A DNA stretch of 54,940 nucleotides. It comes from a virus. Taxonomy: Duplodnaviria; Caudoviricetes. This document shows positions 1,312 to 45,912 of this stretch, piece after piece (the first letter of the stretch is position 1; each line of letters opens with the position of its first letter). The notes beneath the pieces are model-generated. The model saw nothing but the letters and a program-made list of their open reading frames with translations, ran no database searches and was not told the origin of the DNA. The position numbers and the translations under genes were made by a program. The stretch covers positions 1 to 54,940 of IMG/VR virus record IMGVR_UViG_3300049846_002234; one strand, 5' to 3'.

Positions 1312-1548
1312 ATGCGTATGGCGGCTCTTGACCCGGAGCTCTTGGATGAGATGCTGGCAGAGCTCTCAGCACGGCGCCTGCCCAAGAACGACCTCCCGAA
1401 GTACGTGGCCCTGATCTTCGCCGCCGCTGTCGCCTGGGGCGCCTTCGAGGCCCGCATGCGTGTGGTGGAGGATCGCTACGACCAGCTCAAGGCGGCGATC
1501 ATCGAAATGAAGGATGACCTCCGGGCCATCCGGGAACGCCGGCCGTGA
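1312..1548 (+). CDS. Holin-like single-TM protein
   Basis: Hydrophobic YVALIFAAAVAWGAF followed by coiled coil; GTGA overlap with endolysin. Confidence 0.55.
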   Translation: MRMAALDPELLDEMLAELSARRLPKNDLPKYVALIFAAAVAWGAFEARMRVVEDRYDQLKAAIIEMKDDLRAIRERRP

Positions 1549-2099
1549 GCCCTGACCAGGCGGACGAGGCGATCCTCGCCGGGATCCTCCAACGCGAAGG
1601 CGGCTACCGCAACGTCCCGGGGGACCGGGGCGGCCCGACCAACTTCGGCATCACCGCCGCCACCTTGGGTGCCTGGCGGAAGCTGGGGCGGCCGGCGACG
1701 GTGGAGGAGGTGCAGGCGCTGCCCCTCGAGGAGGCGCGGGAGATCTACCGCAGCCAGTACATCGCCCCCTTCGATCGCATCCCGCACGCGGCGCTCCGCG
1801 AGCAGCTCATCGACTTCGGGGTGAACAGCGGGCCCGGCACCGCCGCCAACCACCTGCAGCGAGTGTTGGGGATTCCTGAGACCGGGACGGTCGGCGCCAA
1901 TACCCTCGCGGTCCTCGAGCAGGTCTCCCGCCTCACCATCGGCACCCGGCCGGCCCTCGCACTCGTCAACGATGCGCTGGTCGCCTCCAGACTCCTCCTC
2001 ATCGATCGGCTGGAGGATGGGGGGAAGATCCCGTCCACCGACGAAGAGGGTGTAGAATCGCGGGCACTCGGGTTCTTCCTCGCACGGCCCAACGGCTGA
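1545..2099 (+). CDS. Endolysin, glycoside hydrolase family 108
   Basis: EGGY.N.PGDRGGPTNFGIT signature; DFGVNSGP and LQRVLG typical of GH108 with peptidoglycan-binding region. Confidence 0.9.
   Translation: MSPDQADEAILAGILQREGGYRNVPGDRGGPTNFGITAATLGAWRKLGRPATVEEVQALPLEEAREIYRSQYIAPFDRIPHAALREQLIDFGVNSGPGTAANHLQRVLGIPETGTVGANTLAVLEQVSRLTIGTRPALALVNDALVASRLLLIDRLEDGGKIPSTDEEGVESRALGFFLARPNG
2053..2058 (+). promoter_or_regulatory. TAGAAT -10-like element (GTAGAATC copy 1)
   Basis: One of five identical GTAGAATC octamers near gene ends or starts. Confidence 0.4.
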
Positions 2100-13922: not shown

Positions 13923-13932
13923 CCGGCCCGGA

Positions 13933-16833: not shown

Positions 16834-17249
16834 AGCGCTCGATGGCCGCCGGCGCCGGGTACCTGGTCATTGACCATTCCAACAGCCCTGGGATCTCCGC
16901 CGCCGACGCCGCGCGGCTGGGCATCCTGGCCGCGCCCGGCGGGACGGTGCTCGAGCGTGACACGGTGACGTGCGCGCACTGCCACTGCGTGGTGGTGCTC
17001 AACCCCGAACGGGTCCGTGCCCGTGCCACCTGCTTGAAGTGTGCCAGCTACATCTGCGACGGGTGCGAGGCGATCCGCGTGGCCATGGGCGGGGCGTGTC
17101 TGCCCTTCGAGCGGGTGCTGGAACGGGCCCAGGAGCTCCTGGTGCGCTACGCCGGGCAGCCCGATCACCCCGCGCTTGCCGCGCTCGGGAGGCTCTCGCT
17201 GCTCGCCGTGCCCGATCCTGCTCGTATCGTCGTGCCACATTCTGTGTAG
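16830..17249 (+). CDS. Cys-rich zinc-finger protein
   Basis: CAHC...CLKC..ICDGC...CLPFE; ATGA overlap. Confidence 0.7.
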   Translation: MKRSMAAGAGYLVIDHSNSPGISAADAARLGILAAPGGTVLERDTVTCAHCHCVVVLNPERVRARATCLKCASYICDGCEAIRVAMGGACLPFERVLERAQELLVRYAGQPDHPALAALGRLSLLAVPDPARIVVPHSV

Positions 17250-17789: not shown

Positions 17790-17800
17790 AGCGGCCGGCA

Positions 17801-17840
17801 GCCGCCGGCGGCGCGTCTCCCCTACCTGCCGCCGGTCGGC
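17801..17840 (+). terminator. GC-rich intergenic hairpin
   Basis: ccggcggc (17805-17812) pairs with gccgccgg (17828-17835), extendable. Confidence 0.35.
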
Positions 17841-17878
17841 AGCCCGTGCGACGTGTGTACACCCACGGAGGAGAGATC

Positions 17879-19546
17879 ATGCGGAAGTCCCTGGTGCTGC
17901 TGACCCTGTTGAGCTGTCTGTGCCTGCCGGAAGGGGCGGTAGCGCAGACGCCCAATCTGCCTCGGATCACCGATGCGCCGGTGTATCTCGGCTCGTTCGC
18001 GGTGCCGTTGGTGGATCGGCAGAGTGTCGCGCTCGACTACGGAGGGTACGCGCTCGGCATGGGGGCGGATGGCACCTCGCTCTACATCGGCTGCCACGAC
18101 TACACCGATCAGCTCGCCCGGGTGAGCATCCCGGCGATCGGCGGCGTAGCGACGATTCTCGAGGACTGCACCACGATCCCCAACGTGCAGGAGATCGTCC
18201 CGGGAACCAACAAAGCCGTCCTCGCCAACGGGCTGCAGCTCGGGGGCACGCTCATCTGGAACAACCGGGTCATCGTCACGGCCTTCACCAACTACGACAA
18301 CGCGGCAGACGGCCCAGGAGGGATGCAGCTCTCCCACTTCGGCGGGTCCACCATCGCCACACTCGCCGGGCCTCGCAAGGTGTCGGACTCGGTGAACACG
18401 CCCGTCGGCATGACGGGCGGCTACATGGGGATCGTCCCGCCCGAGTGGCGGACGGCTGTGGGTGGCCCGGCGCTCACTGGCCTGTGCTGCATCAGCATCC
18501 TCTCCCGTACCAGCTATGGGCCGAGTGCTCATGCCTTCGATCCCGATCTGGTGGTAGCGGGTTCTGGTCTGGTGCCGTCGGTGGCGCTGGTCGGCTACCC
18601 CGATGCCCACCAGACCCTCGGCGCCTACGACGCAGACAATCCGTACTACAACAGCGCCTGGAGTGTCGGTGGTGTGGCCTGGCCGAACAACACCAAGTCG
18701 GTGTACTTCGTCGCCAACGCCCCCAAGGGACCGTACTGCTACGGCGTCGGCGACCCCGTGCAGGCCAACCACAACGTGGTCATCAATGGTGAGCTGCACT
18801 GTTACGACCCCCTCAACAGCAACAAGGGACCACACGGGTACCCGTACGGGCCTGTGCTCCTCGAGTATGACGCGACCGATTTTGCAGCGGCCAAGGCGGG
18901 AACCAAGCAGTACTGGCAAGTCGTGCCTGTCGCCAAGATCGATCTTCCAGGAGGGGTGACGGCGGCACGTATCACCAGCGCCACCTTCAACCCGACCACG
19001 GGGGAGATCTGGGCGACGTTCTTCTACAACAACCTGCCGAGAGTGCATGGCTGGCGTGTTGGAAGCGTGGTGGCCCCGCCGCCGCCCGTGTCCCCCACAG
19101 GAACGCTCACCGCGACGCCTTCCACCGTATCTGCCGGCCAGTCCTTCAGCCTGACCTGGACAACGGCCAACGCAACGACGGCGGCGATCGACAAAGGGGT
19201 AGGAGCGTTGACGCCCGTCGCGGGAGGGTCGAAGACGCTGGTGAGCCCGAACGCGACGACCACCTACACACTCACGGCGACAGGCGCGGGTGGGACGGCG
19301 GTCGTCAGAACGACCGTGGAGGTGACGGGGGCATCCGCGAGTACGTGCGTCTCCGACCCCCTCTCGGTTTCCGTCACAGCCTGGCCGGGTATCGGCGAGG
19401 GGAGTCGTACCGGGAGCTTCACCTGGAGTGTCGCTGGGGCGACGGTGACGTGGAAAGAGTACCGCTTCGTTGTGGCGAACGGACGAGCTAACAGCTTCGT
19501 ATTGACAGACTCTCGTGGGTGTACCACGACGGTGTTCAGACCGTAA
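17879..19546 (+). CDS. Signal-peptide protein: beta-propeller-like domain plus Ig-like domain
   Basis: ATG 17879 after GGAGGAG; MRKSLVLLTLLSCLCLPEGAVA|Q; Ig unit PTGTLTATPSTV...TTYTLTATGAGG. Confidence 0.75.
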   Translation: MRKSLVLLTLLSCLCLPEGAVAQTPNLPRITDAPVYLGSFAVPLVDRQSVALDYGGYALGMGADGTSLYIGCHDYTDQLARVSIPAIGGVATILEDCTTIPNVQEIVPGTNKAVLANGLQLGGTLIWNNRVIVTAFTNYDNAADGPGGMQLSHFGGSTIATLAGPRKVSDSVNTPVGMTGGYMGIVPPEWRTAVGGPALTGLCCISILSRTSYGPSAHAFDPDLVVAGSGLVPSVALVGYPDAHQTLGAYDADNPYYNSAWSVGGVAWPNNTKSVYFVANAPKGPYCYGVGDPVQANHNVVINGELHCYDPLNSNKGPHGYPYGPVLLEYDATDFAAAKAGTKQYWQVVPVAKIDLPGGVTAARITSATFNPTTGEIWATFFYNNLPRVHGWRVGSVVAPPPPVSPTGTLTATPSTVSAGQSFSLTWTTANATTAAIDKGVGALTPVAGGSKTLVSPNATTTYTLTATGAGGTAVVRTTVEVTGASASTCVSDPLSVSVTAWPGIGEGSRTGSFTWSVAGATVTWKEYRFVVANGRANSFVLTDSRGCTTTVFRP

Positions 19547-19559
19547 GAGGAACCCTCCG

Positions 19560-22229
19560 ATGCGGAAACTGGTCCTTGTACTCGCTATTCTCGCGCTGGC
19601 CACCTCGGTATCGGCGCAGCCGATCACCACGGCGGCGAACGCGGCGTTCGGCGTCGTGTCGACCACCTACGACGCGAGCGCCACCAGCATCGTGCTCTCG
19701 TCGGGACATGGCGCGCGGTTCGGCTCGACGTTCCCCGTCCGGGCGGTCTGGTACAACGCGACCGACTACCCGGGCGGGGTGGACTCGACGGGCACGGTCG
19801 ACCCGAACATCGAGTGGATCGAGATCACGGCGCGGGCGACCGATACGCTGACCGTGACGCGCGCCATCGAAGGACCGGCGGCGTCGACCAAGAACACGGG
19901 CGGCAAGACCTACTGGATCGTCGCCGTGCCCGTGACGGCCGCGAGCTGGAACGCCGTGCTCGCCTCGCTCGGGGCCAGCCCGCAGGCGCTGAAAACCACC
20001 TCGTCGCCCACGTTCGGCGGCTTGACCGTCGACACCGACACGTTCTGCGTCGACGCGACCAACAACCGACTCGGCATTGGGACGTGCGCGCCAGACTTCG
20101 CGGTCCACGCAATCGCCAACGCCACTAACATTTGGGCCTTCGACACCTACAGCAGCAATTCGGCGTTCCGCTTCCGCAGCGGCAACGGCACCAGTTCAGC
20201 TATCACCCGCAAGGCGAGCAGCGAAGGGCTCGGCGCGTTGCAGTGGTGGGGCGCGGCGAAGGATGACGGGCTGTCAGGTGCCACGTTCATCACCGGCAAC
20301 GCCACGCTACGCGTGATGACCCGTGAAGCATTCACGACGACCGGGCGCGGCACGCAATTCGAGTTCCAGCCGACCGCCGTCGGCAGCACCTCCGTCGCGA
20401 CGGCCGCGACGCTCAGCAGCGATGCGCTCGGATTGGCAGCGGGTGTCGACCTGACGCTCGCGGCCGGAAGCGAAGTGCAGCACGCCTCCGAGTACGTGTC
20501 GCGCGGCACCACAGGCTTTACCCTCTATCCGGGCGGAACCAGCACGAATAACACGGACCATCAGATCCGTTGGAGCGGTGCGAACAACGCCGGCGGCGGC
20601 ACGACCAGTAACCAGATTATTCAACTGTTCCGTAATCGCATCGATGGGAGCACGAACTACTTCAACCCCGTGATCCGGTGGGCACCTACAGATGGCACCA
20701 ACAATGGCGCCGACGTAGGGGAGTTTGGCGTCGAGGGAAACTGGACGAACGCCGGCGGCTACACGCTGCGCCGGATCTACCTCTGGGACTTCGTGAGAAA
20801 CAGCGGTGCGGGCGGCACGATCTGGCGCTGGGAAGACAGCCAGCCGGGGCAGTTCAACATCGGCGGCGATGACCTGGACATGAACCTGCACGTCGACCAG
20901 GGGCACTACATCGCCAAGAGCTATTCCAACACGGCGGGCACGGGCACGAGCGTCGACCTGTATCGCTTCCGCAACGCGATTGCGAGCGACCCCGATCGGG
21001 CGCGAAGCGGCGACGTGCTCGGGCGCGTGCGTGCGTTCGGCGGCGAGGGCGCGACCGACACCGCCACCGCGACGACGCCGACCGCCGCTTCGGCCGAACT
21101 GCGGTTCGACGCGGCGGCGAGCCACACCACATCGGACCATGCCGCGCAGACGGTGATCGCCACGGCGGGCAGCGGCTCGACGACCCTGACCGACCGCTTC
21201 AAGGTCGATTACACAGGGACGCAGATTTTGGAGTCGCTCTCGCTGAGCGGCGACAACCAGCCCGCGCAAATCGCGGCCAACACGAACGACTACGCCATCA
21301 GCAGCACGGCGGCGGTCACGGTGGTCGACGCCGACCAAATCCGCACGATCACCGGCATGACGGGCGGCATCGACGGGCGCCAGCACACGATCATCAACGA
21401 CGGCGCGTCCGACTCGGTGATCATCCTGCGCCACGACGACACGGGCAGCACGGCGGCGAACCGCTTCACGATGCCGAACGACGTGGTGCTCGAGCCCGGC
21501 CAGCCCGCGACGTTCTGGTACAACTCCACGGCCTCGCGCTGGCAACTGCTCGCCACGCCCTCGAACAACCGCACGGTCTACCTGCCGTTCGAGGACAACG
21601 ACCTGCTCAACACGGCCAGCGCCGACACGAAGGAGGCGACGGAGACGTGGAACTACGCCGTGATCTCCTCGGGCACGCAGGCGAAGGTCGCGGCGGACGG
21701 GACGCACCGGGGCATCCTCCGCACGCTGAGCAGCACCACGACCAACAGCGGCGGCGTCATGAACACGGCGGTCGACTCGTTCCGCCTCGCGGGCGGCGAG
21801 TACACCGAGTTCGTGTTCAACGTCGACACCACGACGAACACGACGATCCGCATGGGCTTCCTCGACACGGCCACCTCGGCGGATGCGACCGATGGGGCGT
21901 ACATCGAGATTCCCGCGAGCACGGCCCCGACCTGCAAGACGGCGAACAACAGCACCCGCACGACCAGCGCGACCATCGCCACGATTGCGACGGCGACGTG
22001 GTATCGGGCGCGCATCGAGGTCGACAACACGGCAGCGAACGTGACCTGCACGATCTTCGACGCCAACGGCAACAGCCTCGGCAGTCAGACCAACAGCGCC
22101 AACATCCCCACGGCGGCGGGGAGGGAGACCGGCCACGGCTACGTCGCCACCAACAGCGGCACGACCGCCGTGAACCTGATCCAGATGGACTACATGAGCG
22201 TCGGCACGCGCCGCGCCATCATCCGGTAG
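19560..22229 (+). CDS. Tail fibre-like protein with N-terminal signal peptide
   Basis: ATG 19560 after GAGG; MRKLVLVLAILALATSVSA|Q; DTLTVTRAIEG, SSPTFGGLTVDTDT..VDATNNRLGIGT fibre motifs; C-terminal lectin-like domain. Confidence 0.8.
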   Translation: MRKLVLVLAILALATSVSAQPITTAANAAFGVVSTTYDASATSIVLSSGHGARFGSTFPVRAVWYNATDYPGGVDSTGTVDPNIEWIEITARATDTLTVTRAIEGPAASTKNTGGKTYWIVAVPVTAASWNAVLASLGASPQALKTTSSPTFGGLTVDTDTFCVDATNNRLGIGTCAPDFAVHAIANATNIWAFDTYSSNSAFRFRSGNGTSSAITRKASSEGLGALQWWGAAKDDGLSGATFITGNATLRVMTREAFTTTGRGTQFEFQPTAVGSTSVATAATLSSDALGLAAGVDLTLAAGSEVQHASEYVSRGTTGFTLYPGGTSTNNTDHQIRWSGANNAGGGTTSNQIIQLFRNRIDGSTNYFNPVIRWAPTDGTNNGADVGEFGVEGNWTNAGGYTLRRIYLWDFVRNSGAGGTIWRWEDSQPGQFNIGGDDLDMNLHVDQGHYIAKSYSNTAGTGTSVDLYRFRNAIASDPDRARSGDVLGRVRAFGGEGATDTATATTPTAASAELRFDAAASHTTSDHAAQTVIATAGSGSTTLTDRFKVDYTGTQILESLSLSGDNQPAQIAANTNDYAISSTAAVTVVDADQIRTITGMTGGIDGRQHTIINDGASDSVIILRHDDTGSTAANRFTMPNDVVLEPGQPATFWYNSTASRWQLLATPSNNRTVYLPFEDNDLLNTASADTKEATETWNYAVISSGTQAKVAADGTHRGILRTLSSTTTNSGGVMNTAVDSFRLAGGEYTEFVFNVDTTTNTTIRMGFLDTATSADATDGAYIEIPASTAPTCKTANNSTRTTSATIATIATATWYRARIEVDNTAANVTCTIFDANGNSLGSQTNSANIPTAAGRETGHGYVATNSGTTAVNLIQMDYMSVGTRRAIIR

Positions 22230-22233
22230 CACG

Positions 22234-23337
22234 ATGACCTTCCCTGGCGGCCTCACTCCGGGCGGGCTTCCGTGGGGCGGCGTTGCGGCTGACGCCCCAC
22301 CGGCAGGTCCAGATCCGTTTGCGGGGGCTGTCTGGGCACTCCCCGTGGGGATGCCGTGGCGGCTGCCCCCGACCATCACCAATGCCGCCATCCTGGCAGA
22401 CGCCACCCTTCCAACGGCTGGGGTATCTGCGCTGCCCCCCGCGCGTGTCGCCGCTCCCCGTGTAGACTGGCTGGCCTCGCCTGGCCTGCCGATCCTCTCG
22501 CCGTTCCTCGAGGACGCGCCCGTGCGTCCTGGGGGGCAGCCTCGGCTCCCGAACAGCCCTGTGGCGGCTGGGGCGTTCCTCCTGGCCGGCAACGCCCTGC
22601 TGGCGTCCCCGGAGATGCCGGTGGCCCTGGCCAGCCAGCCTCCCATCCGCGCTGGGTATCAGCGGCGCGTCGATGTCGGGGGAGCCAGCCCCGTCCTCCT
22701 TGCCACGCCTACCTTCCCGGCGGGCGTGCAGACTACGCCGCTCCCCCAGCGCCTCCCCATCAACGGGCCTGTGGCGCTGGACTTCTGGTGGGGAACCAAC
22801 GCGCCTGCGGTTGAGCTCCCGGCAGGTCGGCAGGCGGTACTCATCCCCCAGCGGTTGTTCGTGCCGGATGCGACACGGGTTGGGACGATTCTCCCCATCT
22901 TCGGCGAACCGCCGCCGCCCGGCGCCGCACTCCTGGCGTTGGTGCGCCCTGTCGTGCTGGGGGTGCCGCCGTCGCGTGTTGACACCCTGCTGCTCCTCAC
23001 GACGGTGGCAGACATGCCCGTCGGGGGGCGTGGGGCCACACGCCCAGGACGGCTGCCAGACCGCCCGATGGCGACCGCACAGGCGTGGCTGCAGTACCTT
23101 CCCTCGCCAGCCACGACGATGCCTCCGGGGCAGACCTACGCCCCCCGACCGCCTGCCGCACGTTGGACGGCGCCGGTATCCCCGTACCTGGCGGCCTACG
23201 TACTCTCGGTGCCCCCCGCCCCCTTCGACGGGGCGCTCATGTGGCAATTCCAGGACGGGCCGACGGTGTACACTTTCGGCGGGCCAGACGGCACCACCTG
23301 GGTGTTCGCCGCCGACATCACGACGTGGGAGTGGTAA
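22234..23337 (+). CDS. Pro-rich protein with degenerate ~35-aa repeats
   Basis: Recurring hydrophobic-P-x-G anchors (LPTAG, FPAG, LPAG, MPVG, MPPG). Confidence 0.65.
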   Translation: MTFPGGLTPGGLPWGGVAADAPPAGPDPFAGAVWALPVGMPWRLPPTITNAAILADATLPTAGVSALPPARVAAPRVDWLASPGLPILSPFLEDAPVRPGGQPRLPNSPVAAGAFLLAGNALLASPEMPVALASQPPIRAGYQRRVDVGGASPVLLATPTFPAGVQTTPLPQRLPINGPVALDFWWGTNAPAVELPAGRQAVLIPQRLFVPDATRVGTILPIFGEPPPPGAALLALVRPVVLGVPPSRVDTLLLLTTVADMPVGGRGATRPGRLPDRPMATAQAWLQYLPSPATTMPPGQTYAPRPPAARWTAPVSPYLAAYVLSVPPAPFDGALMWQFQDGPTVYTFGGPDGTTWVFAADITTWEW

Positions 23338-23340
23338 GCC

Positions 23341-23664
23341 ATGTTGGTCAACCAGAACGTCACGCCGAAGCAGCCCGGGGAGTCGCGGAAGTACGGCGGC
23401 GACTGGCGGCCGGCGCTCGCCCGCTTCCCAGGGGTCACCATCGTCGGGTCGGCGTGGAGTCTCGTTCCTGGGAGTGACGGAGCGCTCACCCTCGGGACTG
23501 CCGCCATCAATGGGGCAGGGGATCAGACCAGCGTGCTTCTCGGTGGGGGGACGGCAGGCGTCGTCTATACCCTGAAGAACAGCGTTACCTTGTCGGACGG
23601 CCAGATCCTGTACGGGTACGGCGTCCTCGAAGTCGCCTCAGAAGAGGCTATGTTGCGCGTCTGA
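23341..23664 (+). CDS. Phage fibre-tail adaptor-like protein
   Basis: KQPGE.RKY..DW...L...TI..SAW...LGGGTAGVVY.LKN.VT.SDG family pattern. Confidence 0.7.
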   Translation: MLVNQNVTPKQPGESRKYGGDWRPALARFPGVTIVGSAWSLVPGSDGALTLGTAAINGAGDQTSVLLGGGTAGVVYTLKNSVTLSDGQILYGYGVLEVASEEAMLRV

Positions 23665-23680
23665 GCGCCCGGAGATCGTC

Positions 23681-24124
23681 ATGAGCCAGTTGGGTCGCCT
23701 CCACCGGATCGCCACCAACCCTGCCACGCAGTTCATCAGCGCCATCGCGCAGAACGCGGGGGAGTACCTCGGGCTCTCCGCCACGGAGCTCGGCATCACC
23801 GCCAAGGGGCGCGTGGCGCGGGTGGTCCTCCGCACCATCGAGAACAAGGATTGGGAGGTGTACTTCTACGCCACCTCGGCCAACAACACCGCCCTCCCCA
23901 GCACCAACAAGTACCTCGGCCGGTGCGCCTTCGTGGCCGCCGACGGCAAGCAGATCGCGGCGACCGGGCCGTACCTCTACGACAAGGCGTGTGACGTGCC
24001 GGTCGAGGATGCGGGGGGCGCGAGCAAGATCCACGTCGTGCTGGTGAATCGTGGGACGCTCACCACCGCCGGCGCCGATCGCATCGGCCTCGAGCTCCAC
24101 GTCGACCCCACGCACGGAGACTGA
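23681..24124 (+). CDS. Hypothetical virion-type beta protein
   Basis: GGAG RBS, GC3 bias, fibre module. Confidence 0.7.
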   Translation: MSQLGRLHRIATNPATQFISAIAQNAGEYLGLSATELGITAKGRVARVVLRTIENKDWEVYFYATSANNTALPSTNKYLGRCAFVAADGKQIAATGPYLYDKACDVPVEDAGGASKIHVVLVNRGTLTTAGADRIGLELHVDPTHGD

Positions 24125-24125
24125 T

Positions 24126-26405
24126 ATGCGTCGCTGGCTCTCCCTTCTCGTCCTCCTCGCCGTCGGGGCGCTCGCGTACCCGTCCGCGCAGACGCTCAGC
24201 TCGCAGGTACTGCAGCTCCTCATCCGCACCAACGTGTGGACGGGGAGACAGACCTTCAACGACCTGCGCCTGCCCGACGCCTCGCCAGCCGATACCAGCG
24301 CGCGGTTGTACCAGATCGGCGGCTCGCTGTACTGGAACGGTGGGGCGGTCGCTGGCGGCGGTGGCGGGCCGGCGCTGCACACCCTGCTGGGGTCGAGCCA
24401 CACCGACACCACCTCTGCCACCGTGGTGCGTGGTGCTCTCATCACCGGGCAGGGCGGAACCCCTACGTGGTCGATGCTTACCCTGGGCAGCGCGGGAACG
24501 ATGTTGCGGAGCGATGGCACCGATGTCGCCTGGGGCACCGACGCGAGCGCCCTCACGGCCCTCAACGCCACGCAGCTCACCTCCGGGACGGTCCCGCTCG
24601 CCCGCCTGAGCGGCATCACCAACACGGAGATCGCGGGCGGCGCGGCGATCGCCTGGACCAAGTTGGACAAGACGGGGAGCAGTCTGGCGGATCTGACGAC
24701 GCGATCGGCGACGGACCTGACGACGGGCACCCTCGCTGATGCCCGCCTGTCCGCCAATGTGAGCCTCTTCGGGGCGGCGGTCGACAACGCGGAGATCACG
24801 GCGGCGACGATCACCTTCGCCAAGTGGGCGAGCAACGCCTGCACGGCTGGGCAGTACCCGCAGTACGACGGCGCCAACTGGATCTGCAGCACGGTGACGC
24901 CGGGGTCGGGCACGGTCACGAGTGTCGGACTGACCATGCCGGCGATCTTCTCGGTGACGGGATCGCCGGTGACGGGAAGTGGGACGCTGGCGGCGACGCT
25001 GGCGAACCAGAGCGCCAACCTGGTGTGGGCGGGCCCGAGCACGGGGGCGGCGGCCGCGCCGACCTTCCGCAGCCTGGTGTACGCGGATCTCCCCACGAGC
25101 GCGGCGACGGCTGGGACGTACCCCAAGGTGACGATCAACGCCCAGGGGATCGTCACCGGCACCGCCAACCAGATCACCCTCACCACCGACGTGACGGGGG
25201 TGCTCCCCTTGGCGAACGGTGGGACGGGGCTGAACGCGGCGAGCGACGATTCCGTGCTGCTCAGCAACGGCACCACGTGGGCGGCGGTGGCGGTGAACAA
25301 CTGCACGGCCGGGCTCACCTACACGACGGCGACCAACACCTTCGGGTGCGTGGCCTCGGTGGCGAGCCATGCGCTGCTCTCAGGGAGTCACAGCGATACC
25401 CTGGCCGCGAGCGTGGTGCGAGGGGATCTGATCATCGGGAGCAGCACGCCGCAGTGGGTGCGGCTGGCTGTGGGCGCCAACCCCAGCGTGCTCTACAGCA
25501 ACGGCAGCGACCCGGCGTGGAAGAAGTACGAGATCCTGCTCTCTGGCACGATCACACAGGCAGATGGCTCTGTAACTTCACAGCCGTCCGGATGGTACAA
25601 CGTCGATCCCAGCAACTTCTTTCTGCACTTCGGTACGGTGCAGAACATGTCCGCGTACATCGCCGGCACGACGGGGCGCTATACGACAGGCACGTCGATC
25701 CTTGGTGCCGCCTTGCACGTATCCGCGCAGGGTGGGCCGGCGACGGGAGATGAGTGGTACGGATCGGCCGTGTTGGCGAGCCCGCAGTTGCAGGCAGGCA
25801 CCTCAGGCACGCACTCGATCATCGCGGCGATGGCGACGAGCTTCCAGGTAGCGTCGTGGGGCTCCGGCACTGGCACAGTCACCAACACCGCTGGGTACTA
25901 CTACACCCAGGGTGCGATCACGCCGTCAGTCACAGGGAAGAAGTACTCCTTCTTCGCCGACGACGGCGTGGCGCGATTTGACGATGGGGTTGAGGAACGC
26001 GGCCGCACCACCCTCATGGGCGAGTGGGCTTCCCCCTCCTACTCAGCCGGGAGCTACACCGCCAACGGGGCGATGACGTGGACGGTCGACAGCGGCGATG
26101 TCTCCGCGTTCAACTACACGGAAATCGGCCTGACACAGACGATCAGCCTGATCTTGTCAACGACCACGGTTGGAGGTACCCCCAATACCGAGCTGCGGGT
26201 GGCCATCCCCAACAGCCGCACGGCGGCCCGTACGACCGTGGGGACGTGTGTCGGCCTCGACAACAGCGTGAACTTCCAGGGCTTCTGGCAGGCCACGGCA
26301 GGCAACGCCTACGTGTCGATCTACAACGACCCCTCCGCCGGTACCAACTGGACGGCGGCGACCAACACGACGCAGATCCGGTGCGACATCACGGTGTCCT
26401 TCTAG
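24126..26405 (+). CDS. Tail fibre-like protein with N-terminal signal peptide
   Basis: ATG 24126 after GGAG; MRRWLSLLVLLAVGALAYPSA|Q; GTVTSVGL..P..FSVTGSPVT.SGTL, AGP..GAAAAPTFRSLV, LPLANGGTG fibre repeats. Confidence 0.82.
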   Translation: MRRWLSLLVLLAVGALAYPSAQTLSSQVLQLLIRTNVWTGRQTFNDLRLPDASPADTSARLYQIGGSLYWNGGAVAGGGGGPALHTLLGSSHTDTTSATVVRGALITGQGGTPTWSMLTLGSAGTMLRSDGTDVAWGTDASALTALNATQLTSGTVPLARLSGITNTEIAGGAAIAWTKLDKTGSSLADLTTRSATDLTTGTLADARLSANVSLFGAAVDNAEITAATITFAKWASNACTAGQYPQYDGANWICSTVTPGSGTVTSVGLTMPAIFSVTGSPVTGSGTLAATLANQSANLVWAGPSTGAAAAPTFRSLVYADLPTSAATAGTYPKVTINAQGIVTGTANQITLTTDVTGVLPLANGGTGLNAASDDSVLLSNGTTWAAVAVNNCTAGLTYTTATNTFGCVASVASHALLSGSHSDTLAASVVRGDLIIGSSTPQWVRLAVGANPSVLYSNGSDPAWKKYEILLSGTITQADGSVTSQPSGWYNVDPSNFFLHFGTVQNMSAYIAGTTGRYTTGTSILGAALHVSAQGGPATGDEWYGSAVLASPQLQAGTSGTHSIIAAMATSFQVASWGSGTGTVTNTAGYYYTQGAITPSVTGKKYSFFADDGVARFDDGVEERGRTTLMGEWASPSYSAGSYTANGAMTWTVDSGDVSAFNYTEIGLTQTISLILSTTTVGGTPNTELRVAIPNSRTAARTTVGTCVGLDNSVNFQGFWQATAGNAYVSIYNDPSAGTNWTAATNTTQIRCDITVSF
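24378..25520 (+). repeat. Duplicated ~52-aa H-x-L-L-x-x-S-H-x-D module in fibre
   Basis: HTLLGSSHTDT..VVRGALI..W..L..G...LRSDGTDVAW (from 24378) and HALLSGSHSDT..VVRGDLI..W..L..G...LYSNGSDPAW (from 25368). Confidence 0.8.
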
Positions 26406-26419: not shown

Positions 26420-26692
26420 ATGCGCACCCTGACCCCGCTCCGTCTGTCCGTCCTGATCCTCGTCGCGCTGGTGACCTTCCTCGCCTGCGGCGCCGCCGGC
26501 GCCTGGGCGTACCAGGAGTACACCGCCTACCGGCAGATGCAGACCCTCTTGCCGCAGATGATCAACGTCATCAACGCGCACGAACAGGTGCTGCAGAAGA
26601 TCACGGGGGCGCCAACGATTGCGCCTTCGACGGGTGGTGGAGCGTCGCCGGGCGGCGGACCCGGAGCGGGGGCTCCGCCCCCCGCCAAGTAG
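26420..26692 (+). CDS. N-terminally membrane-anchored small protein
   Basis: Long hydrophobic N-terminus, short helix, Gly/Pro tail. Confidence 0.65.
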   Translation: MRTLTPLRLSVLILVALVTFLACGAAGAWAYQEYTAYRQMQTLLPQMINVINAHEQVLQKITGAPTIAPSTGGGASPGGGPGAGAPPPAK

Positions 26693-27412: not shown

Positions 27413-28029
27413 AGGACGACGCCCTCCTCTCCGTGATTCAGCGGTACGTCCAGGAGCCGGTGGTCGACGGCGGGCGTACCTGGGCGCTGGGGCTCTGGAC
27501 GCGGGAAGAGGTGGTCGCCTACCTCGCCGCAGCGGAAGAGGACTTCATCCAGCGTACCCAGGTGATCGTCGGGTGGCAGCTTCAGGACTACACAGCGGGG
27601 GCCGGAGCGACCACCCTGGATCCTGAAGTGATCGAGGTGCTCACGGTGTCGGTGACCCAGGCCGGGCGGGGGACACCCTGTCCACTGGTCAGCCGGCATG
27701 AGGCGGATCTCCTCTACCCGGGATGGCCCAACCTCTCTGGGCGCCCGCGTGCGGCGATCTACGGGGATGCGGGCACGGCGACCTTGACGCTGGTTCCCCC
27801 ACCTGACGCATCCGGGCAGGTCCACCTGCACGTGATCCCGGTCCCTGAGCCGCTCAGCGGCGACGGCGACCCCCTCACCGTCGGCGATCTCTGGGAGCCG
27901 TTCGTCGTCGCTGGGGCACTCGCGCGGATGTTCGCCAAGCCCGGACAGGCGTACAATCCCCAACGGCGGGATCAGGCCAACGCGATCTTCGAGTTCGGGG
28001 TAGCCCTGGCGCTGCAGCGGACGGCTTGA
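27409..28029 (+). CDS. Adaptor-like protein, paralog 3
   Basis: WTREEVVAYL..AEEDF; EAD..YPGW...GRP....LTLVPPPD; ALARMFAKPG. Confidence 0.7.
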   Translation: MKDDALLSVIQRYVQEPVVDGGRTWALGLWTREEVVAYLAAAEEDFIQRTQVIVGWQLQDYTAGAGATTLDPEVIEVLTVSVTQAGRGTPCPLVSRHEADLLYPGWPNLSGRPRAAIYGDAGTATLTLVPPPDASGQVHLHVIPVPEPLSGDGDPLTVGDLWEPFVVAGALARMFAKPGQAYNPQRRDQANAIFEFGVALALQRTA

Positions 28030-28049
28030 TCCTCCGCCGGGAGGAGCTG

Positions 28050-31000
28050 ATGGAGACCCCAGGATACTCGCCGCAGGCAGCCGCGCTGGTGGTCCTCCGT
28101 CCGGGAGCGCGCGGTCTGGTGGTCAACGCCGCCCCTGAGCTCCTGCCGCCGGAAGCCGCGCAGCTCCTCGAGAATGTGCGCGTGGACCGTGATGGGCGCC
28201 TGCGCCTGCGTCCTGGCTGGGTGCTGCAGTTCACCCTCCCCTCCAGCGGCCCTGTACACTCCCTCGCCCGTCTCTACCTGCCCTCGAGCGGTACCTATGT
28301 CGCGTTCGTGGGCTCGGGCACGGTCCTCTGGCGTGGAGCGACGCCTGCCACCATGCAGGCGGTGAACACCGTCCTCAGCGGCAACCCCCTGGTCATGCTG
28401 CCGTACCGCCCGGCGATCTCCGGCGACCCGTGGATGATCGTCGGAGATACCTCGGTGCTCGGGCAGGTACCTCCGAGTGGCGAGGCGATGCTCCTGGGGC
28501 TGCCGGCACCGGATGTCGTGTGCAGCACGCGGATTGTCGACATCCTCACGACCAAGATCTGCGACTTCCACGGGGCCGTGTCACAGGCAACCGCCTGGAC
28601 GATGACGGCCGGCGTGGACGATTCCGTCCCCAAGGCCCAAGGCGCCGGGGCGCCCGTCGCCGCCGACATCACAGGGATCCAGGGCAACGCTGTCGAGTTC
28701 ACCACCAACATCGGCAATGCGCTCAAGGGCTACACCTCGATCATGGGCCTGCCGGTGACGATGGATCTCACCACGTTGCAAGGTGGGTTCCGTGCGGCGG
28801 GGCAGGACGACATCATCCATATGTGGATCCGGCTGAGCCGGCCGGGCATCGTGGAAGAGGTGCGCGTCTATCTGGTGTGCTCGTCTGGCTTCTCTCCCAG
28901 CGTCGTTCCAGGGCAGCACGGATCGCTCAACACCGATGCGTTCGTCCATGCCTTCCGCCCGAGCGACATCACCGGGTTCCTGGAGAACAAGCAAAGCGGC
29001 ACCGCTGCGGCGGAACAGACGCAGCGTACCCAGGTGATCGATGAGTACTTGCGCCTGCCTGACGAGGACGATTCCGACGATGCCAAGGATGGCGTGCGCC
29101 GGCGCTTCCCCAACGACAGCACGGGACGCGGCACGCACACCAGTTCGCGGGTACCGGATGAGATGGCGCCCGGGCGCAACGTGTGGACGGAGTTCGGCGC
29201 CCTCGGCAAGCCCCTCCGGCGCAGCGATTTCGAGCGTATCGGTACGACAACGGGGCGCGGCTGGGGCACCATCACCGGGATCGTGATCGTCATCAAGACG
29301 ACGACGAATGAGGTGGTGAGCCTGGCGTGTGACGATTGGTACCTCACGGGTGGGTACGGGCTGGATTCGAGCGAGCCGGGCGCCGCGTCCTACGACTACC
29401 GCTACACCCACTACCACCTCGACACCGGGGATGAGGGCAACCCCAGCCCCATCCAGGGCGAGACATCCCGACTCTTCCCGATGCGGCAGCGCACGGCGAT
29501 CCTCCCGACGGCGTACACCGGGGCTGGAAGTACGCGGGTGCGCCAGCGCTTCTACCGGCGGGGCGGGACGATCACCGACGACTGGTACTACGTCGGGCAG
29601 AACACTGCGAACGGGGCGGAGTTCGTGGACACGTTGGAAGATCTGGAGATCGCGGCCGCGCCCACACTCGAGATCGACAACTATCAGCCGGTCCCCACCG
29701 TGGACACCCAGGGCAACACGGTCAAGGCGGCGGTGCTGCCTGCTGTGTGGGGACCGCACGATGGGGCGATCTACGGCTGTGGGGATCGCTACCGCCCGGG
29801 GCATCTCTATCGCAGCAAGACCGGGCGGCCGGGGAGCTGGCCTCCCGATCTGGTGGTGGAAGTGTGCAGCCCCAGCGAGGAGCTACTCAACGGCTTCGTG
29901 CATTCGGGGCAGGGCTTCGTCTTCTCCCGGCGGCGGCTGTTCCTGATCTCGGCGAACGCCGTCACCGGCGGGGCGATGGCGGTGCAGGACACGCCGTGTC
30001 AGAAGGGCTTGGCCGGCCGGTGGGCGTTTGCGGTGGGCCCGGAAGGCATCGCTTTCATCAGCGATGACGGGATCTACGGGACGGATGGGGGCGGCCCGGC
30101 GCAGGAGCTGTCGGCGGACATCCGCCCGTTGTGGTTCGGGCAGACGACGATCGGGGCGGTGGCGATCAACCTGGCGAGTGAGACCAACCTGCGCCTCTTC
30201 TGGGGCAAGGGCACGCTCTACTTCCAGTACCTCGGCCTCGACGGCAACCTCCACCAGCTTGTGTGCGCGCGAAACGGCGGGCGGCTGGTCTGGTCCCGCG
30301 ACGTGATGCCGGCCACGCCTGGCGCGTTCTACTTCGATGCGGAGAACCCGGAGCTCCCCCCGTACCTCGGATCGGGGGATGCCGGGCCCGCCACCATCTA
30401 CAGCTTCGACGGCCGGGATGATGATGGCGTGCCGATCACGGCGCAGTACATCTCTCCCGAGTTGAGCTTCGATCGCCCCCGCGAGGAAAAGCAGCTCGGC
30501 GATCTCATGGTGGAGACCGATGGGCTCGGGGCTGCGGGGTTGTCCGTGGCGGTGACGCTGGACGATCGCACGATCCTCCCCACCCAGACGATCACAGGCG
30601 CCGATCAGCAGCAGCAGCGGGTGCTGGTGACGCCAGACCCGGGGGTGGAGCACCGCTTCCGCTCTGCCCGTATCCATGTGGTCCTTCCAGGGGACACGGC
30701 AGGTGCCGCCCCGGAGCTTCGACAGCTCCAGTTCACGGCGACCCCGCTGGTGGAAGAGACAGAGCGCCGCATGGGTGTGTGGGAGCCGCTCGGGAAGAAC
30801 GGGGCGTATCTCACCGGCGTGGTGATCACCTGCGACACTCGGGAGAACGTGCTGGCTCGCACCGACAACACGCTGGGCGCCAACACGCGGAACGTCCAGA
30901 TCGAGTACTCCCGGGGCGGCGGAGCCGTCGGGGTGCTCGGGCCGTACCTCATCGACGCCAGTCAGGGACGGCGCAACATCTACCTGAGCTGGTCGGGGGT

Positions 31001-32087
31001 GATCGCGGATCAGGTACGCATCGTCCCCCTCGATGCCAACCCGTGGTTGCTCTACGCCCTCAAGTGGCAGGCCACCGACGAGCCTCCCTCGCAGGGGGTG
31101 TGGGACAGCGGTGAGGAGATTCTGGGCGATACCTACTACACCGGCCTGGATCTGGTGGTGCGTGGGGAAGGGGTGGCGGCAATCTACGTCGACAACCAGC
31201 TCGTCTCCACCTACGACTTCCGCACCACCTCCACGGAACCCTCGAAGGTCACGAGCACGACGGCCAAGACGTACCTCCACCACACCTTCGGGCCGGGGTA
31301 CGGGCACATCTACCGCTGTGTCATCGCGGCCGGTGCGGCGGGCGTGCAGGTGTACGCGCACAAGTGGCTGGCGGCGCCGGTGCCTGGGGAACAGAGCAAC
31401 TGGAACCGCAACTTCGAGCTCGCCGGGACACTCACCGAGAAGATGGTGAAGGGGGTACTGCTCGAGTGCGACACCGGCGGGCTCACCAAAACGGTCGACG
31501 TGCAGGCAGACGGGGTGACGGCCACGACCCTGAGTGTGACGGCGAACGGCCGGCAGGTGCTCCACCTGAGCTTCCCGCAGTTCCGGGCGCGGGTGCTGCG
31601 GATGCTCCCCACGGATTCGGCACTCTCCCGCCTGTTCTCGGTCCAGTGGATCTTCGATGAAGAGCCGCTGGCCCTGGCGCGATGGGAAACGCAACTCCTC
31701 GATCACGGTCAGCGGGACTACCATTCGATCTTCCGTCTGATTGTGGACTACCGGGCGGCGGCGGCCGTGACGCTGACGATCGAGGGGTATACCCGCGATG
31801 GGTTCCGCGCGTTCCAGCATGAGTACCTCCTGCCGGCGGCAAACGAACGTGTCAAGCGTGTCGTGTCGGTGCAGGCGCGCATGGCGATCCTGTGGAAGTA
31901 CACCTTCACCAGTGCCACACCCTTCAACCTCTACCGCGAGGGGTGCGGCATCACTGTGATCCCACTGTCGGGGGAGGAACGGCAGGATATCTCGGCGCCG
32001 TTCGGCAACGATGACCTCGACCACGGGCGGGCGCTCGGCAACGCGAGCGGCGTGGCGTCGACGCCGAACAACGGAGCGCTCGAATGA
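28050..32087 (+). CDS. Tail nozzle / tail tubular B-like protein
   Basis: LLENVRVD..G.LR.RPG N-terminus, propeller blades (LYRSK...P.SWP, FISDDGIY), repeated C-terminal beta-sandwiches; ATG 28050 after GGAGGAG. Confidence 0.75.
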   Translation: METPGYSPQAAALVVLRPGARGLVVNAAPELLPPEAAQLLENVRVDRDGRLRLRPGWVLQFTLPSSGPVHSLARLYLPSSGTYVAFVGSGTVLWRGATPATMQAVNTVLSGNPLVMLPYRPAISGDPWMIVGDTSVLGQVPPSGEAMLLGLPAPDVVCSTRIVDILTTKICDFHGAVSQATAWTMTAGVDDSVPKAQGAGAPVAADITGIQGNAVEFTTNIGNALKGYTSIMGLPVTMDLTTLQGGFRAAGQDDIIHMWIRLSRPGIVEEVRVYLVCSSGFSPSVVPGQHGSLNTDAFVHAFRPSDITGFLENKQSGTAAAEQTQRTQVIDEYLRLPDEDDSDDAKDGVRRRFPNDSTGRGTHTSSRVPDEMAPGRNVWTEFGALGKPLRRSDFERIGTTTGRGWGTITGIVIVIKTTTNEVVSLACDDWYLTGGYGLDSSEPGAASYDYRYTHYHLDTGDEGNPSPIQGETSRLFPMRQRTAILPTAYTGAGSTRVRQRFYRRGGTITDDWYYVGQNTANGAEFVDTLEDLEIAAAPTLEIDNYQPVPTVDTQGNTVKAAVLPAVWGPHDGAIYGCGDRYRPGHLYRSKTGRPGSWPPDLVVEVCSPSEELLNGFVHSGQGFVFSRRRLFLISANAVTGGAMAVQDTPCQKGLAGRWAFAVGPEGIAFISDDGIYGTDGGGPAQELSADIRPLWFGQTTIGAVAINLASETNLRLFWGKGTLYFQYLGLDGNLHQLVCARNGGRLVWSRDVMPATPGAFYFDAENPELPPYLGSGDAGPATIYSFDGRDDDGVPITAQYISPELSFDRPREEKQLGDLMVETDGLGAAGLSVAVTLDDRTILPTQTITGADQQQQRVLVTPDPGVEHRFRSARIHVVLPGDTAGAAPELRQLQFTATPLVEETERRMGVWEPLGKNGAYLTGVVITCDTRENVLARTDNTLGANTRNVQIEYSRGGGAVGVLGPYLIDASQGRRNIYLSWSGVIADQVRIVPLDANPWLLYALKWQATDEPPSQGVWDSGEEILGDTYYTGLDLVVRGEGVAAIYVDNQLVSTYDFRTTSTEPSKVTSTTAKTYLHHTFGPGYGHIYRCVIAAGAAGVQVYAHKWLAAPVPGEQSNWNRNFELAGTLTEKMVKGVLLECDTGGLTKTVDVQADGVTATTLSVTANGRQVLHLSFPQFRARVLRMLPTDSALSRLFSVQWIFDEEPLALARWETQLLDHGQRDYHSIFRLIVDYRAAAAVTLTIEGYTRDGFRAFQHEYLLPAANERVKRVVSVQARMAILWKYTFTSATPFNLYREGCGITVIPLSGEERQDISAPFGNDDLDHGRALGNASGVASTPNNGALE

Positions 32088-45908: not shown

Positions 45909-45912
45909 AGGG

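Follow-up and report, generated by a model that had tools for sequence, protein, structure and literature searches.

Secretion-type leaders and paired cysteines suggest that the tail fibres of a soil-type podophage probably fold outside the cytoplasm

Where do the fibres of a tailed phage fold when their genes begin with what look like secretion signals? The question is raised by an uncultured, short-tailed phage (podophage) of soil type, whose contig of 54.9 kb and 67% G+C (the window analysed here, 54,940 nucleotides) encodes portal and adaptor families that a family search placed in the same podophage type as GP4. Three genes on its plus strand share a leader of common form (basic, hydrophobic, small-x-Ala|Gln): P0001 (17879..19546; 555 aa, eight mature cysteines), the tail fibre P0002 (19560..22229; 889 aa) and the predicted fibre P0003 (24126..26405; 759 aa). 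Our analysis suggests that fibres carrying such secretion signals together with paired cysteines probably fold outside the cytoplasm, where the other parts of the virion are assembled.

The leaders comprise residues 1-22 of P0001 (nt 17879-17944, ...GAVA|Q), 1-19 of P0002 (nt 19560-19616, ...VSA|Q) and 1-21 of P0003 (nt 24126-24188, ...PSA|Q, with an alternative site ALA|Y after residue 17), and all three end in A|Q. An earlier note on this DNA had given the same starts and leader sequences, which we read without change. Each start codon follows a purine-rich, Shine-Dalgarno-like stretch (GGAGGAGAGATC-ATG at 17879, AAGAGGAACCCTCCG-ATG at 19560 and ACGGAGACTGAT-ATG at 24126). In-frame GTG codons lie upstream in all three genes and might suggest that the true starts are elsewhere and that the hydrophobic stretches are untranslated or due to chance, but such an annotation artefact is extremely improbable: upstream starts would merely lengthen the n-region, and third-position GC falls from 0.82 in 17879-19546 to 0.60 in the upstream in-frame stretch 17468-17878. 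Nor do the starts appear to lie downstream of the hydrophobic segments, as had been considered earlier. No in-frame start was found between leader and conserved mature sequence in any of the three genes, and the next ones after codon 1 (codon 33 in 19560, codon 37 in 24126) both fall within sequence conserved among homologues, so that a downstream start cannot avoid the leaders. Judged by a heuristic test and by conservation among homologues, the leaders are Sec/SPI-like, as proposed before, and are retained in 110/120 of the P0003 homologues listed, in 58/62 members of the P0001 family and in 6/6 of the leader-bearing P0002 set, which also speaks against an artefact. When 49 ORFs of the contig were scanned for strongly hydrophobic 11-mers located no more than 10 residues from a plausible start, only four had one (mean Kyte-Doolittle 2.77-3.39), namely the three leader genes and ORF 26420-26692, and all of them belong to the fibre module.

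P0003 has 558 homologues. The ten listed homologues that fail the leader test consist of P0032, which has a hydrophobic leader and no basic residue, three truncated and two upstream-extended gene calls, and four proteins without the N-terminal domain. An alignment of 114 rows shows variable residues in leader columns 4-20 (frequency of the top residue 0.24-0.67), frequencies of 0.80 for Ala at -1 and 0.90 for Gln at +1, and near invariance in the 25 columns that follow. Judged from these sequences, the leaders of the P0003 family are a selected feature. Their median length is 22 residues with n/h/c organisation, and since only 51/111 n-regions contain an RR pair, they appear Sec-like and not obligately Tat. 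A proline occupies position -3 of the conserved A|Q site in P0003 of this phage and of its nearest relatives, an unusual residue there for signal peptidase I; together with the possible ALA|Y site four residues earlier, it makes the exact mature end of P0003 uncertain. The proline would also fit a different reading, in which the hydrophobic N-termini stay uncleaved and tether the fibres to the inner membrane, on its cytoplasmic or periplasmic side, serving as a platform for assembly or as a timing device until another protease or lysis sets the fibres free. We consider this quite unlikely, as the frequent Ala and Gln right before the invariant domain favour cleavage at a defined site and the leaders are short and organised as n/h/c regions.

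The cysteines offer an independent, though indirect, sign of folding outside the cytoplasm. P0003 has six in three pairs (239/254, 393/408, 708/753) and P0002 four in two pairs (163/176, 792/830). The number of mature cysteines is even in 114/114 aligned P0003 homologues (0, 4, 6, 8 or 10) and in 55/58 sequences of the P0001 family, both being phylogenetically non-independent sets. Within the P0003 family, cysteine pairs are gained and lost jointly: both members of 239/254 are present in 95 rows, one only in 0 and 0, and neither in 19, and the corresponding numbers for an additional pair (reference positions 121/136) are 19, 0, 1 and 94. Likewise, all six leader-bearing full-length relatives of P0002 have even, closely spaced cysteines, whereas 10/22 leaderless ones have odd numbers. 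Two sets served as controls: leaderless homologues of the P0002 anchor (139 sequences) comprised 73 with even and 66 with odd numbers, and the other ORFs of the window with at least one cysteine 13 and 18, respectively. Such strict pairing fits an oxidising compartment and counts against fibres that remain anchored in the membrane.

Behind its leader, mature P0003 opens with a near-invariant N-terminal sequence (LSSQVLQLLxRTNxWTG...), followed by a shaft predicted to be an intertwined trimer and, at about 622-759, by a C-terminal knob. The monomer model had a pLDDT of 39.7. When modelled as three copies, an approach suggested in the earlier note, residues 22-270 were predicted to form a homotrimer with an ipSAE of 0.80, compared to 0.00 for the best of three controls; three runs shared at least 96% of contacts and the partner pLDDT was at least 89. 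In the calibration of the tool, the ipSAE mark was reached by 20/30 proteins solved as one-chain pairs and by 1/23 solved as single chains, figures that were obtained with two copies and the tool's own alignments and apply only roughly to the three-copy run of P0003. The C-terminal domain structurally matches the Dettilon tailspike (Z 9.4, rmsd 2.9, 121 aligned) and also resembles reovirus sigma1 (Z 8.1) and the heads of lactococcal RBPs (Z 6.1-7.6). The models thus predict an intertwined P0003 trimer tipped by a fibre knob, and the protein is best explained as the trimeric fibre that this phage group conserves, its knob serving in receptor binding.

The genes that follow P0003 on the plus strand are a small ORF (26420..26692; 90 aa) whose product has a transmembrane or lipobox-like segment (…VTFLAC|G) at its N-terminus, then a helical part and a Pro/Gly-rich tail, two SU10-adaptor-like genes (26696-27412 and 27409-28029; PF24175, E 4e-11 and 2.7e-15) and, directly after these, a nozzle-like tail protein (28026..32087; 1353 aa) with 35-40% identity in relatives. 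The position of the adaptor-like genes directly 3' of the fibre block is retained in relatives: in both G402, a complete relative with a 70% identical major capsid protein, and L088, a leader-bearing P0003 homologue lies directly upstream of a small transmembrane ORF, the adaptor genes and the nozzle-like gene. The small ORFs of these relatives (66 aa in G402, 63 aa in L088) are built like that of the phage, with no BLAST similarity between them (E 0.55). A small bitopic membrane protein encoded beside the fibre gene in all three phages hints at membrane-associated steps and hence would be in line with anchored fibres.

P0002 is, as judged by its domains, a real tail fibre of the GP4 type. Its N-terminal anchor (about 20-160) is followed by a shaft and, towards the C-terminus, by an SO2946-like domain (716-877), and the protein matches PF22237 (1.5e-28). 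The anchor profile matches 8jov_1, a "Putative tail fiber protein" in the PDB that was solved in the virion with 18 chains (E 5.7e-8), aligning to residues 21-133 of the leaderless 8JOV chain; this entry presumably represents phage GP4, given its code next to 8JOU and the Pfam name. Leaderless homologues of P0002 match PHROG tail-fibre families with their N-termini. At E<=1e-3, the search found 1497 representatives of the anchor domain, and among the best 150 of these, 139 start with the domain at residue 2-13 and lack a leader; the other 11 include nine with hydrophobic leaders of differing sequence types and two other cases. Since the same domain works without a leader in these 139/150, the hydrophobic segment lies outside the docking fold, which again argues against a membrane anchor. 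P0002 and P0003 flank a fibre-tail adaptor gene, as previously noted: the plus-strand gene at 23341..23664 (107 aa, no leader) encodes a homologue of the Gp77 adaptor (PF23148, E 5.4e-17, 62.5 bits with a cut-off of 27) and also matches 8jou_D (E 0.038). On either side of it lie, on the same strand, a proline-rich ORF (22234..23337; 367 aa, GC3 0.80) lacking leader and cysteine, and a leaderless 147-aa protein (23681..24124), neither with a match in family searches. The latter is kept in G402 (35% identity, E 1e-17), there upstream of a P0001-like gene; no Gp77 or P0002 homologue was detectable in G402.

The previous description of three fibre proteins therefore stands for P0002, with its 8JOV match, and for P0003, with its predicted trimer and knob. 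P0001 is ruled out as a fibre by its five-bladed beta-propeller (about 29-398) and Ig/PKD-like domain (about 407-483), which are followed by a small C-terminal beta-sandwich (model pLDDT 83.8), and we regard it, on the basis of this model, as a secreted beta-propeller/Ig accessory of the fibre module. Many of its 134 homologues are Acidobacteriota/Vicinamibacterales MAG proteins with FN3, SLH, PKD or BNR domains, and G402 encodes a leader-bearing homologue (34% identity). The propeller is frequent in secreted multidomain proteins of Acidobacteriota MAGs and its structure matches indicate a fold like that of glycoside hydrolase propellers, both of which would suit proteins that are exported and never join the virion. 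Such proteins could act on the envelope of the infected or lysogenic cell, either by masking or destroying receptors (to exclude superinfection or to protect progeny from debris) or by adhesin display similar to the MAT fibres of Bdellovibrio, and the virion would use other, leaderless appendages. A candidate for these is encoded at 32084-34105 (673 aa, PHROG virion structural protein). Moreover, lambda Lom, T5 Llp and phi80 Cor are exported proteins encoded beside receptor-binding genes. Further support could come from Porphyromonas gingivalis prophages, whose Q-rule signal-peptide genes are read as host-modifying in the part of the study available to us (PMC10367356), and from the MAT fibres, 21/21 of which have a conserved domain directly after the signal peptide according to the accessible text (PMC10769870). 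Nevertheless, we think an action on the envelope rather unlikely. P0002 retains the domain by which a fibre solved in the virion is anchored to the tail and has a matching adaptor gene nearby, and leader-bearing proteins are contained in Cellulophaga phage particles according to MS/MS annotation in the record. In addition, the near-invariant mature N-terminus of P0003 and its constant position between the neck/adaptor genes and the nozzle gene, even where the nozzle-like proteins of relatives are only 35-40% identical, form a pattern typical of a docking domain.

The reading that we favour, with slightly better than even confidence, is Sec export, oxidative folding in the periplasm and late docking at lysis, so that the host-recognition module of a tailed podophage would be routed via the host Sec pathway. 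P0001, P0002 and P0003 would be made with a cleavable type-I signal peptide, cross the inner membrane unfolded and be cleaved before Gln, which, more speculatively, may cyclise to pyroglutamate. Folding, trimerisation and disulfide formation would take place in the periplasm, and DNA-filled particles without fibres would be built in the cytoplasm as usual. The plus-strand lysis block (1318..2099) encodes a small protein with one transmembrane segment (1318-1548) and, within 1518-2099, a GH108 muramidase that lacks an N-terminal hydrophobic segment. When lysis by holin and GH108 endolysin opens the envelope, the contents of cytoplasm and periplasm would mix and the conserved mature N-terminal domains of the fibres could dock onto the tail, in the case of P0002 via the Gp77-type adaptor. 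Judging from what is generally known of holin lesions, these may allow a 60-nm particle and periplasmic fibres to meet efficiently. Export, cleavage site, disulfides and late docking are each steps that we infer rather than observe. As the leaderless appendage candidate at 32084-34105 exists, the leader-bearing proteins need not be the sole receptor-binding parts.

Literature searches found no paper describing an export route for tailed-phage fibres, which agrees with the earlier claim of an undescribed system; the claim is limited by a cultured podophage, Cellulophaga phage phi18:3 (Pachyviridae; KC821620.1). Its three consecutive proteins gp085, gp086 and gp087 have basic-hydrophobic leaders ending in ...S|Q or ...A|Q and are annotated in GenBank as "structural protein, experimental MS/MS", as are eight others without leader. 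By this analogy of leader form and record annotation, phi18:3 provides the nearest evidence for leader-bearing proteins in particles. However, it differs in phage family and in host phylum (Bacteroidota), and gp085-gp087 carry 0, 1 and 3 unpaired cysteines, so that paired cysteines are no general companion of leaders.

Phage-encoded type-I leaders that expose an N-terminal Gln are also known from P. gingivalis prophages, where, as far as the consulted part of that study goes, the genes follow the Bacteroidetes Q-rule, are of unknown function and are interpreted as modifying the host rather than as encoding fibres (Matrishin et al. 2023, PMC10367356). Bacteroidetes are the group for which that rule was described, and the sections consulted do not mention Acidobacteriota (Bochtler et al. 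2018, PMC5837995), whereas our phage has a G+C content of 67% and the bacterial genes most closely related to its own come from Acidobacteriota MAGs. In the MAT fibres of Bdellovibrio bacteriovorus, a conserved domain follows the signal peptide in all 21 proteins, which the portion consulted describes as products of chromosomal genes that a predatory bacterium presents at its own surface or vesicle (Caulton et al. 2024, PMC10769870). In contrast, the genes of the phage sit within a tail operon with adaptor genes. The GP4-type fibre and gp77 (8JOV, 8JOU, PF23148) are matched by the P0002 anchor and by the Gp77 homologue two genes downstream, but the 8JOV chain starts directly with the domain, whereas in P0002 a leader of 19 residues precedes it and the cysteines are paired. 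Finally, the receptor-binding protein pIII and the coat proteins of filamentous (Ff) phages have Sec signal peptides and periplasmic disulfides and are joined to the particle outside the cytoplasm. These phages have neither head nor tail and are extruded through the envelope as they assemble, with no lysis of the cell, whereas in the route proposed here only the appendages of a lytic tailed phage would be exported.

Three genes of this phage begin with predicted Sec-type leaders: P0001 (17879-19546), P0002 (a tail fibre, 19560-22229) and P0003 (a second fibre, 24126-26405). The N-termini written in the earlier note are confirmed on the sequence, and its concern that true starts might lie downstream was answered for two genes, in which the next in-frame start is codon 33 (19560) or codon 37 (24126), both within conserved sequence. 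The 17879 start is supported by third-position GC, which is higher downstream than upstream in frame (0.82 vs 0.60). A start-codon artefact, in which the hydrophobic segments would precede the real genes, is unlikely. Among the 49 ORFs scanned, a plausible start followed within 10 residues by a strongly hydrophobic 11-mer was found only in the three leader genes and in a small ORF at 26420-26692. All three leaders have the n-region and h-region of Sec type-I signals, judged by a basic n-region, an h-region of about 7-15 residues and a leader of about 18-30 residues. The predicted cut sites (marked by a slash) of P0001, A-V-A/Q, and P0002, V-S-A/Q, fit the small-residue rule at -3/-1, and P0003 has P-S-A/Q, with Pro at -3, as well as an alternative A-L-A/Y site.

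Other signal classes were considered from the same leaders. A conserved Tat motif was not found; a twin arginine is present in P0003, and the n-regions of its family (n=111) carry RR in 51 cases, KR, RK or KK in 29, a single basic residue in 29 and none in 2. With RR confined to those 51 members, the leaders of the P0003 family are not obligate Tat signals, and the leaders of P0001 and P0002 have RK, not RR. There is no lipobox Cys in or after the leader of P0002 and P0003; residues 10-13 of P0001 read L-L-S-C, and most of its homologues have leaders ending in A/Q without that motif. No Pfam or NCBIfam family of type IX C-terminal sorting domains (CTDs) was found on the three proteins, a search that distant CTDs could escape. 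The residue after the predicted cut is Gln in all three proteins (17944/17945, 19616/19617 and 24188/24189), in 90% of the P0003 family and, as [AGS]Q, in 45 of 58 P0001-family leaders. An N-terminal-Gln rule has been published only for Bacteroidetes; in contrast, the relatives of the window's genes indicate high-GC Acidobacteriota.

The leader of P0003 is conserved across its family. A large protein collection yielded 558 homologues (E<=1e-3), many on contigs of 30-75 kb, and the earlier question whether homologues retain signal peptides was answered by 110 of the 120 homologues listed, which passed our leader heuristic. The ten failures comprise P0032, whose hydrophobic leader has an n-region without a basic residue, three truncated gene calls, two calls starting upstream of the leader and four mid-protein-only matches. 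In the alignment of 114 homologues, from which P0049, P0088, P0093, P0110, P0112 and P0118 were left out, hydrophobic residues fill the leader columns but vary, with a top-residue frequency of 0.24-0.67 and a median leader length of 22 residues; they are followed by Ala at -1 (0.80), Gln at +1 (0.90) and a near-invariant LSxQVLQLLxRxNTWT. Variable leader, conserved cut site and invariant mature end together are, at the level of the alignment, the signature of a cleaved signal peptide, and an uncleaved anchor that would keep the protein in the membrane is unlikely.

All 114 aligned homologues have an even number of mature cysteines (0, 4, 6, 8 or 10), although these sequences, like those of the controls, share kinship and are not phylogenetically independent. 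In the controls, the other window ORFs with at least one cysteine gave 13 even and 18 odd counts (our own count), and leaderless P0002 relatives 73 even and 66 odd. Moreover, cysteine pairs 15 residues apart are gained or lost jointly in the P0003 family: for pair 239/254, both residues are present in 95 homologues, one only in 0 and 0, and neither in 19; for the extra pair 121/136, the corresponding counts are 19, 0 and 1, and 94. Such pairwise gains and losses would be hard to explain without disulfides, for which an oxidising compartment is needed.

Searches of Pfam, PHROGs, NCBIfam, PDB sequences and cultured (INPHARED) phages returned nothing for P0003, which thus belongs to no described fibre family by Pfam, PHROG or PDB sequence. 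The monomer model is poor (pLDDT 39.7) except for the last 130 residues. However, prediction with three copies of residues 22-270, the trimer check proposed in the earlier note, gave one intertwined trimer, with ipSAE 0.80 in each of three runs against 0.00 for the best of three controls, contacts agreeing by at least 96% and a pLDDT of about 90. In calibration, this ipSAE mark was reached by 20 of 30 pairs-of-one-chain proteins and 1 of 23 single-chain proteins, using two copies and other alignments, so that it applies to the P0003 trimer only roughly. The C-terminal domain (622-759) best matches the distal heads of viral fibres and spikes, including the Dettilon tailspike C-domain (Z 9.4, rmsd 2.9, 121 aligned), the reovirus sigma1 head (Z 8.1), lactococcal phage receptor-binding protein heads (Z 6.1-7.6) and adenovirus knobs (about Z 6). 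P0003 is thus predicted to have both the intertwined homotrimer and the distal head of a trimeric fibre.

Gene order in relatives agrees with this assignment. The complete 71.8-kb relative G402, which has terminal repeats and a capsid protein 70% identical to that of the window, carries a leader-bearing P0003 homologue, then a small transmembrane ORF, adaptor-like genes and a nozzle-like gene, and the same order is found in L088, another related phage genome. This synteny identifies P0003 as a conserved fibre of the phage group, always with a leader there. L088 also has two more leader-like ORFs ending in A/Q around the fibre gene (1591-2331 and 5230-6564), indicating that the size of the exported module varies between relatives. 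The small ORF lies directly after the leader-bearing fibre gene in all three related genomes examined (window, 26420-26692, 90 aa; G402, 13778-13975 on the minus strand, 66 aa; L088, 4723-4911, 63 aa). It combines an N-terminal transmembrane segment with a short helical tail, and the window copy has a lipobox-like F-L-A-C; BLAST gave no alignment between the copies (E 0.55). Its product may be anchored in the membrane as a partner of the exported fibre.

P0002 has the features of a tail fibre to which a leader has been added. Its C-terminus is an SO2946-like domain (PF22237, 1.5e-28), and its mature N-terminal domain has 1497 relatives at E<=1e-3 among 1.84 billion representatives searched. 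Among the best 150 of these, 139 have the domain at their very N-terminus, beginning at residue 2-13. Nine others have hydrophobic leaders, in at least two different styles, and the remaining two have an internal domain and a short extension, respectively. The N-termini of the leaderless relatives match PHROG tail-fibre families. Only P0002 of the three proteins matches a GP4-type anchor, by a profile hit to PDB 8jov_1 (E 5.7e-8, residues 21-133), a 'Putative tail fiber protein' with 18 chains. The 8jov entry code adjoins 8JOU, the entry given for gp77 and the fibre of phage GP4 in a passage of PMC13730344, a 2026 paper. The fibre-tail adaptor gene noted earlier was likewise recovered, as Gp77 at 23341-23664 (PF23148, 5.4e-17, 62.5 bits against a cut-off of 27). 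Based on the 8jov_1 and PF23148 matches, P0002 and this neighbour correspond to a fibre-adaptor pair seen in virions, plus a leader. No Gp77 homologue was found in G402 or in the further relative G403. Between the fibre gene and the Gp77 gene lies a proline-rich ORF of 367 aa (22234-23337) without cysteine, leader or family match, which was not found in G402. All six full-length P0002 relatives with a leader have even, closely spaced cysteines, some within the anchor domain, and cysteine counts are odd in 10 of 22 leaderless full-length relatives. Leaderless and leader-bearing versions of one anchor domain (139 vs 9 of 150) provide a ready comparative system.

The earlier description of three fibre proteins fails for P0001, which is not a fibre. 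In the model of P0001 (pLDDT 83.8), a five-bladed propeller (residues 29-398) is accompanied by an Ig/PKD-like domain and a small sandwich. The propeller domain recurs in secreted multidomain proteins, alongside FN3, SLH, PKD or BNR domains; some of these proteins carry names that assign them to Vicinamibacterales or other Acidobacteriota MAGs. Leaders are present in 58 of 62 recognisable homologues, with even cysteine counts in 55 of 58, and a leader-bearing homologue in the same block of G402 marks P0001 as a stable member of the module. In fold comparisons of P0001, YjiK (Z 16.1) ties with the bacterial glutaminyl cyclase 3mbr (Z 16.0, 14% identity), followed by 3nok, also a bacterial glutaminyl cyclase (Z 14.5), GH43/GH32 hydrolases (about 13-14.7) and the phi11 receptor-binding protein (12.7), and Foldseek returned only generic propellers (TM 0.2-0.3). 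A cyclase was attractive because of the +1 Gln, and PF05096 cyclases occur in 36 of 151 sampled Acidobacteriota genomes. This assignment was rejected at the sequence level: P0001 has no Pfam hit at E<=0.1, hhalign of its family against 14 Acidobacteriota cyclases gave 13.8% probability over 24 columns, and only the five-bladed fold is shared with the cyclases. The exported proteins could instead act on the cell envelope, by receptor masking or by display like the MAT fibres of Bdellovibrio, which, according to a passage of PMC10769870, have a conserved domain straight after the signal peptide. Such a role suits P0001 best, but P0002 and P0003 less, as these have docking-type N-termini and a fixed place in the tail operon.

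The window, a virus contig of 54,940 bp that makes up a whole record, has a G+C content of about 67% and the gene set of a podophage-type genome, with plus-strand genes from about 144 to 44,134 and minus-strand genes beyond. It includes a one-TM protein and a GH108 muramidase (1318-2099), a terminase large subunit in two ORFs (ATPase-like part, 5209-6570; nuclease-like part, 6614-7699), an SU10-type portal (8946-11072), a major head protein (12864-13922) and three SU10-adaptor-like proteins (15023, 26696 and 27409), followed by a nozzle-like protein of 1353 aa. The leader-bearing genes sit in the appendage block, downstream of the first of these adaptor-like genes and upstream of the second and third. 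The terminase is split in G402 as well (64% and 58% identity), so that the two ORFs are not a sequencing error of this contig. Two cysteine-free proteins, of 489 aa (35269-36738) and 2379 aa (36748-43887), are probably ejection proteins or internal components of the virion; the larger one has a JAB/MPN domain (residues 1081-1188). In the structural block, a 166-aa ORF (16749-17249) without a family match has eight cysteines with CxxC-type spacing (positions 75, 78, 80, 95, 98, 103, 106 and 117) and probably encodes a zinc-binding protein. The opposite strand carries a helicase, a family-A DNA polymerase with an N-terminal uracil-DNA-glycosylase-superfamily domain (47767-50004, minus) and, in the replication arm, a NADAR-domain protein (45465-46187, minus). 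No terminal repeat was found in the window.

Leader-like starts were counted in 80 IMG/VR loci sharing the mid-fibre module: they occur in 12 of 81 fibre ORFs with a complete 5' end and in 54 of 1721 other ORFs of at least 150 aa, shadow frames included. We found no description of Sec-routed tail fibres in the literature, supplements being outside the scope of the search; the nearest paper contains a remark on Q-rule signal peptides on P. gingivalis prophage genes of unknown function (a passage of PMC10367356). In tblastn against 50,697 phage records, P0001 and P0003 gave nothing, and for P0002 the sole match (11%) was to four genes named 'tail fiber protein'; single-sequence searches found no solved relatives of the three proteins. 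An IMG/VR search with P0003 alone found no relative, the P0003-family alignment picked up only the widespread mid-fibre module, and a back-translated pattern of the conserved N-terminal motif hit two IMG/VR contigs only. Host searches gave three weak partial loci in genome contigs and, in 401 Acidobacteriota genomes (the centre and 400 sampled), one partial match at E<=1e-20 and no full homologue. The Atlas assignment is 'Viruses' only, with scores under 0.9, and the sole host hint is that the closest named relatives of P0001 come from Vicinamibacterales/Acidobacteriota MAGs.

We tentatively propose, with slightly less than even confidence, that a large and mostly uncultured set of tailed phages has an extracytoplasmic final assembly step, in which Sec-exported, Gln-exposing, disulfide-locked fibres, possibly held by a partner, dock at the holin breach, and that leaders were gained repeatedly. 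The P0002 and P0003 fibres would be translocated by Sec, cleaved before Gln (for P0003, given its Pro at -3, possibly four residues earlier), and folded oxidatively and trimerised in the periplasm. There, the receptor-binding fibres may be held by a dedicated partner, the small, membrane-anchored product of the gene beside that of the fibre. Fibreless particles built in the cytoplasm would receive them only once the holin breaches the inner membrane and holin and endolysin let the compartments mix. The leaders would have been added repeatedly and independently to otherwise ordinary fibre anchor domains.

In the textbook view, tailed-phage assembly is wholly cytoplasmic. Fibre maturation in the periplasm, if it takes place, would make infectivity reliant on the Sec, signal peptidase and disulfide systems of the host, which would represent new points of host control and resistance. 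Lysis itself would serve assembly in addition to release. Fibres could then carry envelope-type modifications, such as disulfides, pyroglutamate and possibly glycans, and be hardened by them for soil or water. Furthermore, such receptor-binding proteins would have to be expressed in the periplasm when produced heterologously for host-range studies, and annotation pipelines in which a signal peptide counts against a virion role would assign such genes wrongly.

In P22 and T7, fibres or tailspikes classically join the particle spontaneously at the end of assembly, which makes late docking biochemically plausible. Incorporation into virions is supported by the cultured Cellulophaga phage phi18:3, whose gp085-087 are annotated in the database record as MS/MS-detected structural proteins and each begin with a leader that stops just before a Gln. 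Leaders are absent from eight further structural proteins of this phage with an MS/MS annotation. The MAT fibres of Bdellovibrio differ in genomic setting, as they are encoded by chromosomal genes of a predator, whereas the leader-bearing genes described here belong to a phage tail operon.
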